Origin: an uncultured Bacilli bacterium
Lineage (GTDB): Bacteria; Bacillota_I; Bacilli_A; RF39; UBA660
NCBI GenBank assembly: GCA_947626855.1
Contig: CANQTT010000001.1
Location: forward strand, 11,695-75,694
Reading direction: 5' to 3'
Length of the DNA: 64,000 bases
In this document: piece after piece, positions 55,082 to 60,906 of the stretch
How the letters are laid out: each line of letters opens with the position of its first letter
Numbering within the stretch: position 1 is the first letter of the stretch
The notes under the pieces: generated by a model
The model's input: only the letters and a program-made list of their open reading frames with translations
The model's database searches: none
What the model was told of the DNA's origin: nothing
Program-made: the position numbers and the translations under genes

Positions 55082-55366
55082 TTATTTTAAATTTCTATTT
55101 TTTTCATATGTAAAATTAGTTGATTTTATGAAACTAGAATTCGCTTTGTCTTTATTAGAATTTCTATCTAACGTATTTTCAGAATATGGTTTTACAAAGA
55201 AAGCTCTTTTGATTTCATTAATCTCTTCTGCCCGAAATTTCACTAAATCTCCCACATTTACGGAATTATCAATATCACTATCCAAAAACAGATAGCTATC
55301 TTCTGGTGTGACGATTGTACCACTAATCCCATTATATTCTTTTACTTTTCCAATACTAAATGACAT
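55082..55366 (-). CDS. Degenerate cold-shock-domain (OB-fold) like small protein, translationally coupled to the upstream 1336-aa ORF
   Basis: GKVKEYNGISGTIVTPEDSYLFLDSDI...VGDLVKF parallels the CspB pattern GKVKWFNSEKGFGFIEVEG..DVFVHFSAI...EGQAVSF, but the RNP1/RNP2 aromatics are replaced. Its start overlaps the stop of the upstream gene by 11 nt. Confidence 0.45.
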   Translation of the reverse strand: MSFSIGKVKEYNGISGTIVTPEDSYLFLDSDIDNSVNVGDLVKFRAEEINEIKRAFFVKPYSENTLDRNSNKDKANSSFIKSTNFTYEKNRNLK

Positions 55367-58300
55367 AATTTGTATTCACTCCTTTTTCTTGTACATAGAC
55401 TTGAACTAATTTTCTAGCTTCCTCTAATTCTCTTTTAGCCTCTGGATCTGTTGTAATTATTTTTTCATGGATTACTCCTATTGCATCCACATAAAGATAC
55501 CAATCATGATTTGCAAATCCATATCTTACTTCCTTTTCATCCAGAATTGGAAATTCTAAATATTCATAGTTTTCACCAGCCATCAATCTTTGAACAGAAT
55601 CAATTCGTCTTATATAAGATACTATTTCTTTCATTGAATGAACCTCTACAACCTTATCTCGAGCTGGTAAATAAGTAGGAAGATTTCGCTTATCAAAATT
55701 GATTGGAACTAATGCATTATCATCTCTAGAAGTTGCAAGAACAATTGCATATCTGCCAACATCACAATAAGAAAGAGTTAATCCTTCTCGGACATTAGAG
55801 ATACCTAAGTTTTGCGTTGGTAAGCCGTCTGCAGCATATTTATCATGCAAAACAACATTATCGATAGGCATCCATCCATCCCGCTCGTAATCCTCCTGAC
55901 TCCTTTCAATCATGAGTTGAGCAATTCGTTTACAAGCTTCTACAATATCTTTATCTGAGTATAAATAAGGATTACAGGATTTTCTAAGTTCATTTAAGAA
56001 AACAGTATTTCCATTTCGAAAACCACTTACCCTTGAAATATATTCTCCTGTCTCTGGATCTTGAAACCGAATATGGAACCCATTTTTATCTTCTAAACAA
56101 AATCTAAAAAGTCCTTCCCCAAATCCCCCAATTCGCATACAAGCTCCTGTTCTCTCTCCATGCGTAAGATTACATGGGTTAGTAAAATTTCCAACAATAA
56201 CTTGTAATTTCTTTGTCTTTGTTACATCAAGTGTTTGATTAAAGGTTGGAACCGTTACTTCCATTCTTTCATAATTCCTTCTTGTCCATGTAACAGCCTC
56301 TCTTAATCTTATATCTGGATTCATTCTAGAACTATTTTCTTGAGGATCAGCCTTAATAATTCTTGCATCTTCACTTCCTAATATTAAAGAGTAGACATTA
56401 GATGTCGCCGCATAAATCTCTGCTTGCTGAATGATATTAGTAAGACTAAAAGAAACATCATTAGAACCGTTTTGCAATCTTTTCCTTTCAGCACTATAAA
56501 TTTCTGAATAGTAGGAAATAAAAGCGGCAAGATTGTATATATCAGTTTCAATACGAACTGGTGGTTGAGCCATAAAATTTATTAGAACATCTGGAATCGC
56601 TAATGATTTGCTTAAACTTTTTTTCAAACTTTCATACAAAAGCTTTGCTTCTTTATCATTTTTATCAAAAGATAAAATCCTTTCCAAATGTTTCAAATTT
56701 ATTCCTCTTAATATTCTAAAAAAATTAATAGAAGATTCTGGAACATCATATTCCCATTTTACATCATGCATTTGAGAATAATATTGTTGTCTTTCTTCTT
56801 CTGACATTTGCGATATTTTATTTTTCAAAAAACTACCAATAATTTTTTGATGTTTTTGCATGATAAGATTTCTCTCTAAATCATCTGTTCTTCTACGAGT
56901 AACAAAATAATCGATGCAATCCATAGCCAAATCCAAACTAAGTCCTTGACTCATTAATTCTTGTTCTAACTCTTCTTGATAAGTCTGCATTTCTATTAGA
57001 AATTTAGGTAATTTACTTCTAGCATCCATACTATCGATATGACTAGATAAAGACAAATCGGATGCCATTTGTTCCATGCCATGAACTTCTCGATAATTTT
57101 CACGTTCTACCCTTATATAATAGTCCATTATAAAATGTAGCATATCCAAATAGAATTCTCTATCTTCTGTATTAGCTTTTATCTTGCTCGTGATCATTCG
57201 CAATAATTGAAAAGGATTGGAATATTCTCTTGCAATTTCTGCATAAGCACCGTTTTTTTCTTCCATAAATTTTTTATAAAATTTACTATCTAAAAGAAAA
57301 ATTTCTGGTCCCCCAAGCTTTTTAAACTCTTTATTCAATTCTTCATATTGTGCCTTTAAACTTTTTAAATGTTCTGATAAAGATTCATTATATGGTTCAA
57401 GCTGAGCTTGTTCGGATAGTGTCTTTATCTGTTCCCGTAGTGACTCCATTTGATTCGATAGAACAATAACAGAATCAAAAGATTGGTCAATGGAGAGGAT
57501 TAAATTGTGAAAAGAATTAACAATTTCTGGATGTTGTCTTGGAAAACCATATTGTATGACTGAATCATAAGCATTTCGTAATTGATCAATCGTCATTTTT
57601 CGTTGAGAAAATAAATCTAATAAGCGATTGAATTGATTATTATCATACTTAAGAATAGCGGCAAGATTCTCATCTTCTAAATAATGAATAATTCTTAAAC
57701 CAAATCGTTCTTTCAAAGCATCTAGATGAGCAGCATTATACCCTCTTGTTTCTACAAAATATTCTTTTAATATTTTGTATACTTCTTCAGAGCAAACAAA
57801 AGAATGATTATCATCTGAATAAATGACTTCAAATAGTTGATTCCTACTAATTGGAAAAGAAAGAAGTGTTTTCAGAATAATTGGTTTTTTCCAAATAGAT
57901 TTTCCTGTTTTAAGACATTCAGAAATACATTCAAGATAGGTATAGTTTTGTTTAATAACTTCCACAAGTTGTTTTTGTGATTCTTCACTTAATTGTTCAA
58001 ACATATCTTGTGAAGAAAGACTACATAATCTAAAAAAGAGATCATACTTTTTTTTATTTATTAGTTTTTCTGAAAATAATGGATCTATTTTTAATATCAG
58101 TTCTATAATTTTTTCTTGGAATTCATCATTTCGAATTTCTATGACATGATTTAAAAATAATTCACTGTCAAAATTAAAGCTAATTTGACTAATGTCTAAG
58201 ATAGAATTTAAATTGCTAAAAAGGAAATTATTCAAATAATCGGGGCAAGCTTTCATTATGTAATATGAATTTCCATTCAAAATTTCTCTAAAAACTAAGT

Positions 58301-59440: not shown

Positions 59441-60748
59441 TTATACGGACTCTTTTCTTTTCTTTTTCATCCTTGCCTTTATTTTTTTATGATAAAGAGG
59501 AATTAATTTTTGAAAAATAAAGTAGAAAAAAGGATGGATAATGAAATCGAATTCTCCAATAAATTCTACATAATCTCCTCCAAATTTTTTCTTAAATTCG
59601 TGAAGGCCTAAAACTGGATTGTCTTTTCGTAAATCTCCGATGGTTCCGAACTGATCATAAATTTGAATCCCTTTTTCTTTTGCATATTTTATATGTTCAT
59701 AGTAGGTATTATAGTTTACGTAAGTCTCACTTAAAATATTATGATTTCCTGCATACAATACCCAAGCTTTATCGCCATATTCAATAATCATGTGAGCACT
59801 TAGTGTTATTGTATCTCCATATTGTTTTTGATATTCTTGATATTTCTCTATATCTTTTTCCACATTTTCCTTTTGTTTGGTGAGTTCTTTTAGCTTTCCT
59901 TTCGCACTTTTGCTTAGATTTTCTGTTGGCATATTTTGTATTTCAGAGTTTAGATTTTCTAAATTTTGAGTTAAGGATTGTATCGTTTTATGAAAATTTA
60001 CTTTTCCTAAGAAAAGGGTTGCATGGCTATTTGGATTCTGATTAAAAATTTCATAAAGAGTTTCGTAATAATCCTTTTGATAAGAAACAAAATCTTTTCG
60101 ATTTTCTGTTAAATTCATCAAGTGATAAAACTCATCAATATCTTCTTTTGTACCAATGCTCACTTCTGTGTTTAATTTTAATGCTTTTTGAATTCTTTGT
60201 TTTGTCGTTTTGGAAAAGTGATCTTCAATATCTTTTAATTCTTGATTTAAATCAATTCGGAAAGAATATCTTGGTTGCATGGTTTCGAAGTTTTTCGTAA
60301 AACCTTTATGTTTGAATCCTAAATCCTTTAACGTTTTAAAAATCTCTTCAACATTGTAGGAAAGTTGTTGTTCTTCCTCTTGATAATTATAAGATTTTAT
60401 AATAATATCGGGATCTATTCTCACAAAAATAGCTTTTTTCTTTTTAGCAAATATCTTTATAAGTTTTGTCATCTGTTGTACTAACTCTTTCTTTTGAAAA
60501 TCAATAACAAATCCTCTTGGTGAATATAAATAAGAAAAACCGAGAGGTAATTTTTTTAAAAGAAGCAAAGAAGCTCCCTTTATATTCTGTTCTTCATCTA
60601 CAAGAGCCATATAGTATGGTGTAACATTTTTTTTGGCTCTAGCAAATTCTCCCCAAGAAGCAGATTGTAAAAAGTGAGACTTAGTGGGATGATTTTTTAC
60701 ATAATTATCAAATTTTTCTTTTTCTAATTCTATTAAGGTTAATGCCAT
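59441..60748 (-). CDS. FemXAB-family aminoacyl-tRNA-dependent peptidyl/aminoacyl transferase
   Basis: HFLQSASWGEF and the overall GNAT-pair plus coiled-coil-insert organisation of FemA/FemB/FemX (~435 aa). Start placed at the ATG at 60748 behind GGGGAGA. Confidence 0.65.
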   Translation of the reverse strand: MALTLIELEKEKFDNYVKNHPTKSHFLQSASWGEFARAKKNVTPYYMALVDEEQNIKGASLLLLKKLPLGFSYLYSPRGFVIDFQKKELVQQMTKLIKIFAKKKKAIFVRIDPDIIIKSYNYQEEEQQLSYNVEEIFKTLKDLGFKHKGFTKNFETMQPRYSFRIDLNQELKDIEDHFSKTTKQRIQKALKLNTEVSIGTKEDIDEFYHLMNLTENRKDFVSYQKDYYETLYEIFNQNPNSHATLFLGKVNFHKTIQSLTQNLENLNSEIQNMPTENLSKSAKGKLKELTKQKENVEKDIEKYQEYQKQYGDTITLSAHMIIEYGDKAWVLYAGNHNILSETYVNYNTYYEHIKYAKEKGIQIYDQFGTIGDLRKDNPVLGLHEFKKKFGGDYVEFIGEFDFIIHPFFYFIFQKLIPLYHKKIKARMKKKRKESV

Positions 60749-60906
60749 TTTCTCCCCTACTTTCCTACTAACCATTATATCAAAAACTAGCCTATTCTAC
60801 AAAAAAGATTTTTTTTAAGAGAGCTTAAGGATTCCTTTTGTTCTTCCCTAGACAAACTAGGAAGAATATTGTAAAATGTTATCGTGTAGTGAGGTTGGTG
60901 TTTAGA

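Follow-up and report, generated by a model that had tools for sequence, protein, structure and literature searches.

A 64,000-nucleotide stretch from an uncultured Bacilli bacterium (GenBank assembly GCA_947626855.1, contig CANQTT010000001.1, positions 11,695 to 75,694; hereafter the window) contains three successive minus-strand genes, for a Fem-type transferase, a giant protein of 1336 aa and a cold-shock-like protein of 94 aa. The locus raises the question of whether these genes form one operon and what kind of protein the giant is. A sequence-only reading, made from the letters and the open reading frames (ORFs), had proposed an uncharacterised three-gene operon built around a domain-less giant orphan. 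The computational analysis described here gives a different answer: the giant and small genes constitute a discrete unit, the giant protein belongs to a large family and ends in a predicted, divergent GNAT-superfamily domain, and the Fem gene lies outside the unit. The best explanation, to which about an even chance is given, is an autonomous two-gene module encoding a helical scaffold with a GNAT-type transferase domain and a co-translated, protein-binding subunit of the non-canonical cold-shock-domain (CSD) type. The three genes are arranged as follows.

55082-55366, minus strand: small partner gene, 94 aa; non-canonical CSD-like by profile, with its core at aa 5-60 and a variable Lys/Asn-rich tail
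55356-59366, minus strand: giant gene, 1336 aa, GTG start; cytoplasmic, mostly α-helical, with a predicted GNAT-fold C-terminal end
59441-60775, minus strand: Fem gene, 444-aa ORF; a FemAB-family neighbour judged to lie outside the module

The ORF list bears out the three ORFs as first read, together with the 74-nt gap between the Fem and giant genes and the 11-nt overlap (55356-55366) of the giant stop with the small start. The likely true start of the Fem gene is the ATG at 60748, which is preceded by a GGGGAG ribosome-binding site (RBS).

The Giant Protein Family

In direct scans, the giant protein matched no Pfam, NCBIfam, PADLOC or PHROGs family, and its sole matches were weak coiled-coil ones at aa 628-690; the comparison with PADLOC-DB v2 yielded no defence match and only a weak coiled-coil-type match to LeoA (1e-4). 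It has neither a transmembrane (TM) segment nor a signal peptide, in agreement with the sequence-only reading (maximum 19-residue Kyte-Doolittle score, 1.07). With the single sequence as the query, an index of 5.8 billion proteins returned only three close full-length relatives, and a scan of genome contigs found no relative. The family was opened only by profiles of the C-terminal 487 aa, which retrieved 76 proteins in the indexed search (all E < 1e-36) and 715 clusters at 50% identity in the exhaustive search (E up to 1e-3), 346 of which reach E-values up to 1e-30. The protein is thus no orphan. Most members are 1000-1500 aa long and carry the conserved domain at the C-terminus. None of the clusters is named or has a Pfam domain, and neither an accessory nor an acetyltransferase domain was found by Pfam in 39 full-length members and four of the longest representatives. 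Apparent fusions to ADP-ribosylglycohydrolase, radical-SAM and GatB sequences (P0032, P0051, P0073) were rejected as probable chimeras, being short partial fragments on tiny contigs. Literature searches and a look-up of cluster names found nothing relevant to the giant/small family.

The following segments can be distinguished in the giant gene.

57297-57485, minus strand: coiled-coil segment, aa ~628-690; weak coiled-coil family matches, and a variable insertion and repeat-expansion site in relatives
56250-56819, minus strand: conserved helical pre-domain, aa 850-1039, ahead of the GNAT core; from profiles and AlphaFold2 (AF2) helices with pLDDT 70-90
55359-56249, minus strand: predicted GNAT-superfamily fold domain, aa ~1040-1336; from AF2 and fold searches
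56124-56159, minus strand: invariant loop GERTGACMRIGG, aa 1070-1081, between α1 and α2; from invariant alignment columns and AF2 placement

The N-terminal 850 aa are helical, and aa 430-630 and 690-830 are homologous to about 25 related loci. Homology among relatives breaks at the coiled coil (aa 630-690), where different repeat arrays are found: YDDKKFNRL seven times in P0002, PEKY repeats in P0003, and 26-aa repeats in locus L011, whose giant homologue (6311-10298) contains about twenty near-identical copies (ITDDRYKARIIESFKEDADKISGLSS) with a scaffold N-gap inside the repeats. Most database entries of the family are fragments of 250-850 aa because assemblies break in such internal repeats. 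When a full-length family profile was compared with PDB sequences, the N-terminal part (>800 aa helical/coiled-coil) matched designed helical bundles only. The N-terminal and central parts diverge fast and expand by lineage-specific repeats.

The C-Terminal GNAT-Fold Domain

The helical pre-domain is part of a conserved C-terminal unit of about 490 aa. AF2 modeling of aa 850-1336 from a 49-sequence alignment gave a pLDDT of 88.8 and a pTM of 0.78. In the model, the helical pre-domain is followed by the order β1-α1-α2-β2-β3-β4-α3-β5, and the mixed α/β core as a whole shows the fold-level topology of the GNAT superfamily, β1-α1-α2-β2-β3-β4-α3-β5-α4-β6-β7. In the fold search, L/F-transferase scored 7.7, LasI and FeeM 7.6 and FemA 6.9, and Foldseek agreed on the GNAT class with modest E-values, the GNAT toxin 7byy being among its matches. 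The C-terminal ~300 aa, first read as a globular region with Cys, His and Asp, are therefore modeled as a divergent GNAT-superfamily domain, so that the description of the protein as domain-less does not hold. The fold class is common to NatD/Naa40 (4u9w), Gcn5 and Naa50 and also includes L/F-tRNA-protein transferase (2dps), LasI, FeeM and FemA. In contrast to these known GNATs, to which it shows about 10% identity, the giant domain matches no Pfam or NCBIfam GNAT model, lacks the glycine-rich pyrophosphate loop, possesses a family-specific invariant GERTGACMR loop, and ends a helical protein of 1000-1900 aa that is accompanied by a small β-barrel-like partner. Neither FemAB profile similarity nor the tandem GNAT-like domains of the FemABX family were found, and membership of the giant protein in that family was rejected (hhalign probability against the Fem profile, 0.13%, with no specific similarity).

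Twenty positions are invariant in the 39 full-length members, which share 21-59% identity with the window protein. These positions are mostly polar or Gly, cluster in aa 1066-1130, and include E1071, C1076, R1078, S1111, R1112, N1120, N1125, R1128, S1130, R1236 and E1313; H1098, R1117 and Y1136 are nearly invariant. The conserved core in the aligned ~490 aa reads GNFTNPCNLTHGERTGACMRIGG...NGFHIRF...ISRVSGFRNGNTVFLNELR. After β4, the window protein has FLNELRKSCNPYLYSD, for which the family consensus is LRxSxxxxYS, with R1128 invariant. In characterised GNATs, the region between α1 and α2 forms a wall of the acceptor site, and the GERTGACMR loop, which is invariant in the family alignments, may play a role at the acceptor site of the giant domain. 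The conservation pattern looks enzyme-like. The GNAT fold points to an activity like that of acyl- or aminoacyl-transferases, without singling out a donor.

The Small Cold-Shock-Like Partner

The 94-aa protein had no match to Pfam, NCBIfam, PADLOC or PHROGs in direct scans. A profile of its family, compared with all PDB sequences, gave 16 matches, 13 of which are cold-shock domains (best E 0.003-0.005). The top match comes from Drosophila Unr, in a fragment that contains a CSD (6y6m, E 0.0032), and a Thermotoga Csp is matched over its full length and in register (E 0.0052). Among the CSDs of Unr are non-canonical ones that serve in protein contacts, to which the matched stretch may or may not belong. 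Alignment of the small family with ten canonical Csps by hhalign gave a probability of 50.6% (E 1.6e-4) over 58 columns, again in register. The likeness to CspA and CspB extends to the length, the predicted five-strand pattern and the in-register profile G-x-V-x-x-[YF]-[DN]-G ... G-x-I ... Y-x-F ... V-x-F ... A-x-F-V. Among 49 family members, Pfam gave a weak CSD match in one (6e-4) and a CSDE1 match in two, with none in the window protein.

The family differs from CspA and CspB in the nucleic-acid-binding surface. Across the 49 members, neither the RNP1 motif (K-G-F-G-F-I) nor the RNP2 motif (V-F-V-H-F) was found, and the aromatic positions of both are deleted or non-aromatic. RNP1 is two residues shorter, with the equivalent of F18 (E. 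coli CspA numbering) deleted; T, E, I or K stands at F20 and E, D, S or K at W11. In RNP2, H33 is replaced by K, D or S and F34 by K, E or S. Further differences from CspA and CspB are a score that stays under the Pfam threshold for CSDs in 48 of the 49 members, the Lys/Asn-rich tail and the location beside a giant gene. At the profile level, the small protein is supported as a non-canonical relative of cold-shock domains without the nucleic-acid-binding RNP surface. The family-conserved surface residues K7, D/N12, Y25, D40 and E47 are candidates for an interface with the giant protein.

Co-Conservation of the Giant and Small Genes

The pairing was surveyed by scanning one genome per species with the C-terminal profile, which gave 76 loci, to which other fetched loci were added; small-protein homologues in the fetched loci were sought with a hidden Markov model built from five seed sequences. 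All 70 small-protein ORFs found (62 distinct) lie beside a giant gene. The 56 distinct adjacent giant/small pairs, together with the partner-less paralogs that resemble membrane proteins, are arranged as follows.

Giant then small: 46 of 56 pairs, 42 of them with overlapping stop and start
Small then giant: 10 of 56 pairs, including loci at one chromosomal site, between a lipoprotein gene and dacB
L051 5658-9167; L069 172-2058 and 2541-5987; L074 1-2829; L075 5760-9350: tail-anchor-like giant paralogs, no partner

In one locus (L053, 4998-9353), a single ORF of 1451 aa carries the CSD-like domain fused in frame after the giant C-terminus. A swapped gene order with adjacency kept is, along with a fusion, a classical sign that two genes work together and that their products probably also interact physically. 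Conservation is higher in the small protein, which has 86% identity to its counterpart in L013 as compared with 59% for the giant. This co-conservation across dozens of genomes upholds the part of the sequence-only reading that treated the giant and its coupled, degenerate cold-shock-like gene as a discrete uncharacterised unit.

Several genomes carry two to six paralogous copies, on different contigs or in tandem, as in the arrays G-s-G-s-G-G of L037, where the four giant copies (G) span about 13 kb, and s-G-s-G of L028. Five partner-less paralogs end in a strongly hydrophobic C-terminal helix (Kyte-Doolittle 2.7-2.8) after a G/S/R-rich linker and look like tail-anchored membrane versions of the giant protein. 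A further variant is found in L001 (37-5438, 5618-7405) and, similarly, in L088 (6552-11093), both of a Firmicutes CAG:884-like lineage, in which very AT-rich, divergent tandem paralogs (936 and 864 aa) precede a short AlaRS-like gene (~580-595 aa). The first tandem copy of the L001-type pair is without the GERTGACMR (E-C-R) loop, and there is no small partner; L001 also has Amidase_3 and Abi_2 genes.

The Fem Gene and the Boundaries of the Module

The identification of the upstream gene as Fem-fold stands: its product matches Pfam FemAB with E 2.6e-84 over profile positions 1-402 of 406. A weak coiled-coil-type match of this product to LmuB (3e-5) was also seen in PADLOC-DB v2. The remaining claim was that a Fem-type aminoacyl-tRNA transferase works with the giant and an OB-fold partner in a three-gene operon. 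All three genes lie on one strand with only 74 nt between Fem and giant, which fits such an operon, and read-through of a terminator in the gap is possible. Nevertheless, the neighbourhoods show that the three genes are not co-conserved. A Fem homologue occurs within 8 kb of the module in five of about 77 loci, the window included, and is directly adjacent in the window only; the closest homologous loci lack it, as do about 72 of the ~77 loci overall. In L039 it lies downstream on the opposite strand, in L059 and L063 it lies 3 kb upstream on the opposite strand, and in L076 it lies 3.5 kb upstream of the giant homologue. Among the close relatives of the giant, L002 and L008 have rubrerythrin upstream in place of Fem, and L003-L005 have a cation ATPase and a 192-aa lipoprotein there; in every close-relative locus, an 86-aa small-protein homologue follows the giant with the identical 11-nt overlap. 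The following signals delimit the module in the window.

59390-59438, minus strand: terminator-like hairpin carrying a U7 run, located after the Fem stop codon and before the promoter of the giant gene
59387-59395, minus strand: extended -10 promoter-like TGtTATAAT, directly 5' of the giant gene; predicted from a consensus match only
59371-59380, minus strand: RBS AGGATGGTGG, 4 nt ahead of the giant GTG start
55030-55082, both strands: bidirectional intrinsic terminator that closes the module, common to the convergent metallophosphoesterase gene

The hairpin in the gap has an energy of -13.9 kcal/mol (z -3.9), and none of 200 shuffles was equally stable. The RBS AGGATGGTGG is kept in L013 and L014, and the order of terminator, TATAAT box and RBS recurs 5' of the module in many related loci. 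At the other end, the strong bidirectional terminator first noted from the letters was recovered as an AT-rich hairpin of 18 bp with U-runs on both sides (minus strand, -17.9 kcal/mol, z -7.7; plus strand, -16.0 kcal/mol, z -6.3), which a consensus terminator scanner missed because it has too few G-C pairs. By these predicted signals, the module has its own σA-type promoter and a bidirectional terminator, and the differing flanking genes in the closest relatives support its autonomy.

On its far side, the Fem gene faces divergent genes for a PMT_2-type membrane glycosyltransferase (517 aa) and a Ddl-like ATP-grasp protein (394 aa) at 60838-63647 on the plus strand. In L076 (31-2548), an ATP-grasp homologue stands directly upstream of the Fem homologue, and the window Fem gene is therefore assigned to the cell-wall genes on its other side. 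Such an adjacency also suggests a conserved ATP-grasp and Fem pair for peptidoglycan side-chain or cross-bridge synthesis. Because the Fem gene is not co-conserved and a hairpin with a U7 run and a promoter sit in the 74-nt gap, it is not a third member of the module, and its correct annotation is as part of the neighbouring cell-wall genes. With the Fem homologue paired with an ATP-grasp gene in L076 and the giant GNAT domain dissimilar to the Fem profile, joint action of all three products is regarded as very improbable. The statement that the locus matches no recognised system can be retained for the giant/small pair, for which nothing was found in Pfam, NCBIfam, PADLOC, PHROGs or literature searches, and falls away for the pairing with Fem.

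Distribution, Neighbourhoods and Comparison with Conflict Systems

Almost all hosts are gut metagenome-assembled genomes from rabbit, mouse, ruminants and humans, labeled as uncultured Bacilli, Candidatus Coprovivens, Firmicutes CAG:884, "Tenericutes" or Erysipelotrichaceae. Eight loci (L017, L019, L032, L042, L052, L067, L077 and L080) are binned as Muribaculaceae/Bacteroidaceae, which is probably mis-binning. The recurrent neighbours of the module are housekeeping genes in clade-specific synteny, such as a cation ATPase, dacB-spmA-spmB, rluB and an ABC transporter. Some copies adjoin dacB-spmAB or spoIID-spoIIGA-sigE, and gerA-type genes are also among the neighbours. A sporulation-gene assignment was rejected, since the upstream boxes are of the σA type (TGnTATAAT) and the neighbourhoods differ between clades. 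A mobile-element origin was likewise rejected, as the family was not found in phage, plasmid and IMG/VR collections.

Two observations concern genes next to single modules. In L002 (6184-7008, minus strand) and L008 (10312-11130, minus strand), a 272-274-aa protein without a Pfam match is encoded convergently after a module with a 1876-aa giant homologue; its YRG...STS/STG...E-rich motifs recall, by eye only, the R-S-E signature of ADP-ribosyltransferases. In L012 (10859-12514), Amidoligase_2 and GATase/peptidase C26 genes, a pair associated with peptide or metabolite ligation, follow the module and were not seen in the other loci.

The multiplicity of the pairs raises the possibility of a conflict or immunity module, in which the GNAT domain would be a growth-arresting effector, the CSD-like protein its cognate inhibitor, and the helical repeats a device that senses an invader and releases the effector. 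Such a module would account for the two to six paralogous pairs per genome and the tandem arrays of L037 and L028, for a conserved, effector-like C-terminus joined to a highly variable, repeat-expanding N-terminal region, and for a small partner tightly coupled and cognate to its giant gene; an own promoter of constitutive type, the GNAT toxin 7byy among the Foldseek matches and the Abi_2 gene near the pair in L001 are also in keeping with it. However, PADLOC and PHROGs gave no match, the phage, plasmid and IMG/VR collections lack the family, and the module stands in stable synteny with housekeeping genes (cation ATPase, dacB-spmAB, rluB) rather than in defence islands. Partner-less paralogs, some with a membrane tail anchor, are hard to square with an unneutralised toxin, and conservation is higher in the partner than in the presumed toxin. 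A conflict function is consequently considered unlikely.

Type II GNAT toxin-antitoxin (TA) systems (TacAT, AtaRT, ItaRT and KacAT) resemble the module in combining a GNAT-fold protein with a small coupled partner, in several copies per genome. Toxins such as TacT, AtaT and ItaT acetylate aminoacyl-tRNA. Known GNAT toxins are about 170 aa long, keep the canonical acetyl-CoA motif and pair with ribbon-helix-helix DNA-binding antitoxins encoded upstream, whereas the module has a giant protein, a CSD-like and usually downstream partner, and partner-less paralogs. Identity with these systems was rejected on the length of 1336 aa, the lack of a CoA motif, the CSD-like partner and the lack of a PADLOC match. 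Polymorphic toxin/immunity systems share with the module a large protein with an enzymatic-type C-terminal domain, a small gene directly downstream and tandem paralogs. In contrast to these systems, the variability is inverted, with the C-terminal domain and the small protein conserved and the N-terminus varying. A polymorphic toxin was also rejected because the searches revealed neither a secretion nor a trafficking domain (signal peptide, TM segments and N-terminal Pfam domains are all lacking).

Possible Mechanism of the Two-Gene Module

The analysis shows the gene structure, predicted fold, family size, co-conservation of the partner and independence of the Fem gene; the mechanism proposed for the module goes further, in that catalysis, complex formation, donor and target are inferred. 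The GNAT domain would bind an activated acyl donor in the β4/β5 cleft. The donor may be acyl-CoA; an acyl-ACP or aminoacyl-tRNA-type donor is equally open because the glycine-rich pyrophosphate loop is missing. The invariant GERTGACMR loop could hold the acceptor to which the acyl group is then passed. Translational coupling would fix the ratio of the cold-shock-like protein to the giant, and the cold-shock-like protein may dock beside the giant C-terminus and, as a subunit dedicated to it, present the acceptor or gate the site. A scaffold, localisation or sensing arm could be provided by the helical region.

Several observations weigh against a transferase with a CSD-type subunit. The canonical Q/R-x-x-G-x-G/A loop for the CoA pyrophosphate is absent and replaced by LRKSCNPYLYSD, without G-x-G/A, so that the GNAT-fold domain could be non-catalytic; the first Arg (R1128) is the sole kept residue of the β4-α3 CoA-loop motif. 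No Pfam or NCBIfam acetyltransferase model is matched by the window protein, the 39 full-length relatives or the four longest representatives. The claim of a degenerate CSD, which holds at the profile level (13 of 16 PDB matches, hhalign 50.6%) and in the loss of the RNP aromatics, found no structural confirmation: AF2 modeling of the small protein from seven sequences gave a pLDDT of 52.5 with strands only at aa 17-60, and a Foldseek search with this poor model returned no match at E < 0.4 and was uninformative. The sole fusion (L053) could be an assembly frameshift rather than a natural protein, and about 13 loci have no detectable small partner.

The missing CoA-binding glycines would also be expected if the module were a structural scaffold, in which a pseudo-enzyme GNAT fold and a CSD-like barrel act as protein-protein modules of a cytoplasmic or membrane-proximal assembly, cytoskeleton-like or associated with the envelope or spore. 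The >800 aa of helical/coiled-coil sequence matching designed helical bundles only, the paralogs apparently tail-anchored to the membrane, the first tandem paralog of L001 without the E-C-R loop, and the copies adjoining dacB-spmAB or spoIID-spoIIGA-sigE point in the same direction. However, the polar residues E1071, C1076, R1078, S1111, R1112, N1120, N1125, R1128 and S1130 persist as invariant at 21-35% identity, a pattern typical of an active or ligand-binding site, and the upstream TATAAT boxes are of the σA type and not -10 elements of sporulation sigma factors. A purely structural role is judged quite unlikely. By its predicted fold, the giant family is a new, large branch of the GNAT superfamily with a novel architecture and partner, unlike any described GNAT architecture.

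Genomic Setting

The replication origin lies inside the window, where gyrB-recF-dnaN-dnaA run on the minus strand up to 43.8 kb and rnpA-yidC-jag(KhpB)-mnmE-mnmG-rsmG-parB on the plus strand from 44.4 kb (37439-53975 as a whole), with a switch in the sign of the GC skew at about 44 kb. The giant/small module occupies a position 11-16 kb to the right of dnaA and is encoded on the other strand from the genes around it, and the 5.7-kb Fem/giant/small block, at 11-17 kb, is head-on to replication. The ParB protein of the window (52401-53975, plus strand) is unusually long for ParB/Spo0J at 524 aa; normal ParB_N and HTH domains occupy aa 8-201, and a stretch of about 300 aa of low complexity (S, T, P, Q, V-rich) separates them from a short C-terminal domain. 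Rfam matches in the window, all on the minus strand, are a tRNA (1626-1698), a T-box leader (21546-21745), borderline at 93.1 bits against a gathering score of 93, and a small SRP RNA (34603-34701).

Significance

The family is large, with 715 clusters and several 4-kb copies per small genome, has neither an annotation nor a model in Pfam or NCBIfam, and occurs almost exclusively in uncultured gut Bacilli. The combination of a predicted GNAT fold, an invariant Glu/Cys/Arg loop and a CSD-like partner turns a hypothetical giant protein into a testable enzyme-plus-subunit hypothesis. A more far-reaching and rather doubtful possibility is that the module represents a new intracellular class of sensor-effector, or of regulated protein- or RNA-modifying system, specific to reduced-genome gut Bacilli, in which a fast-evolving helical sensor arm would control a cryptic GNAT-type transferase with either a non-CoA donor or a Cys-dependent mechanism, gated by the CSD-like subunit, with the paralog pairs providing different specificities. 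The small partner also supplies a bacterial case in which a cold-shock domain appears to have been put to a use other than nucleic-acid binding.

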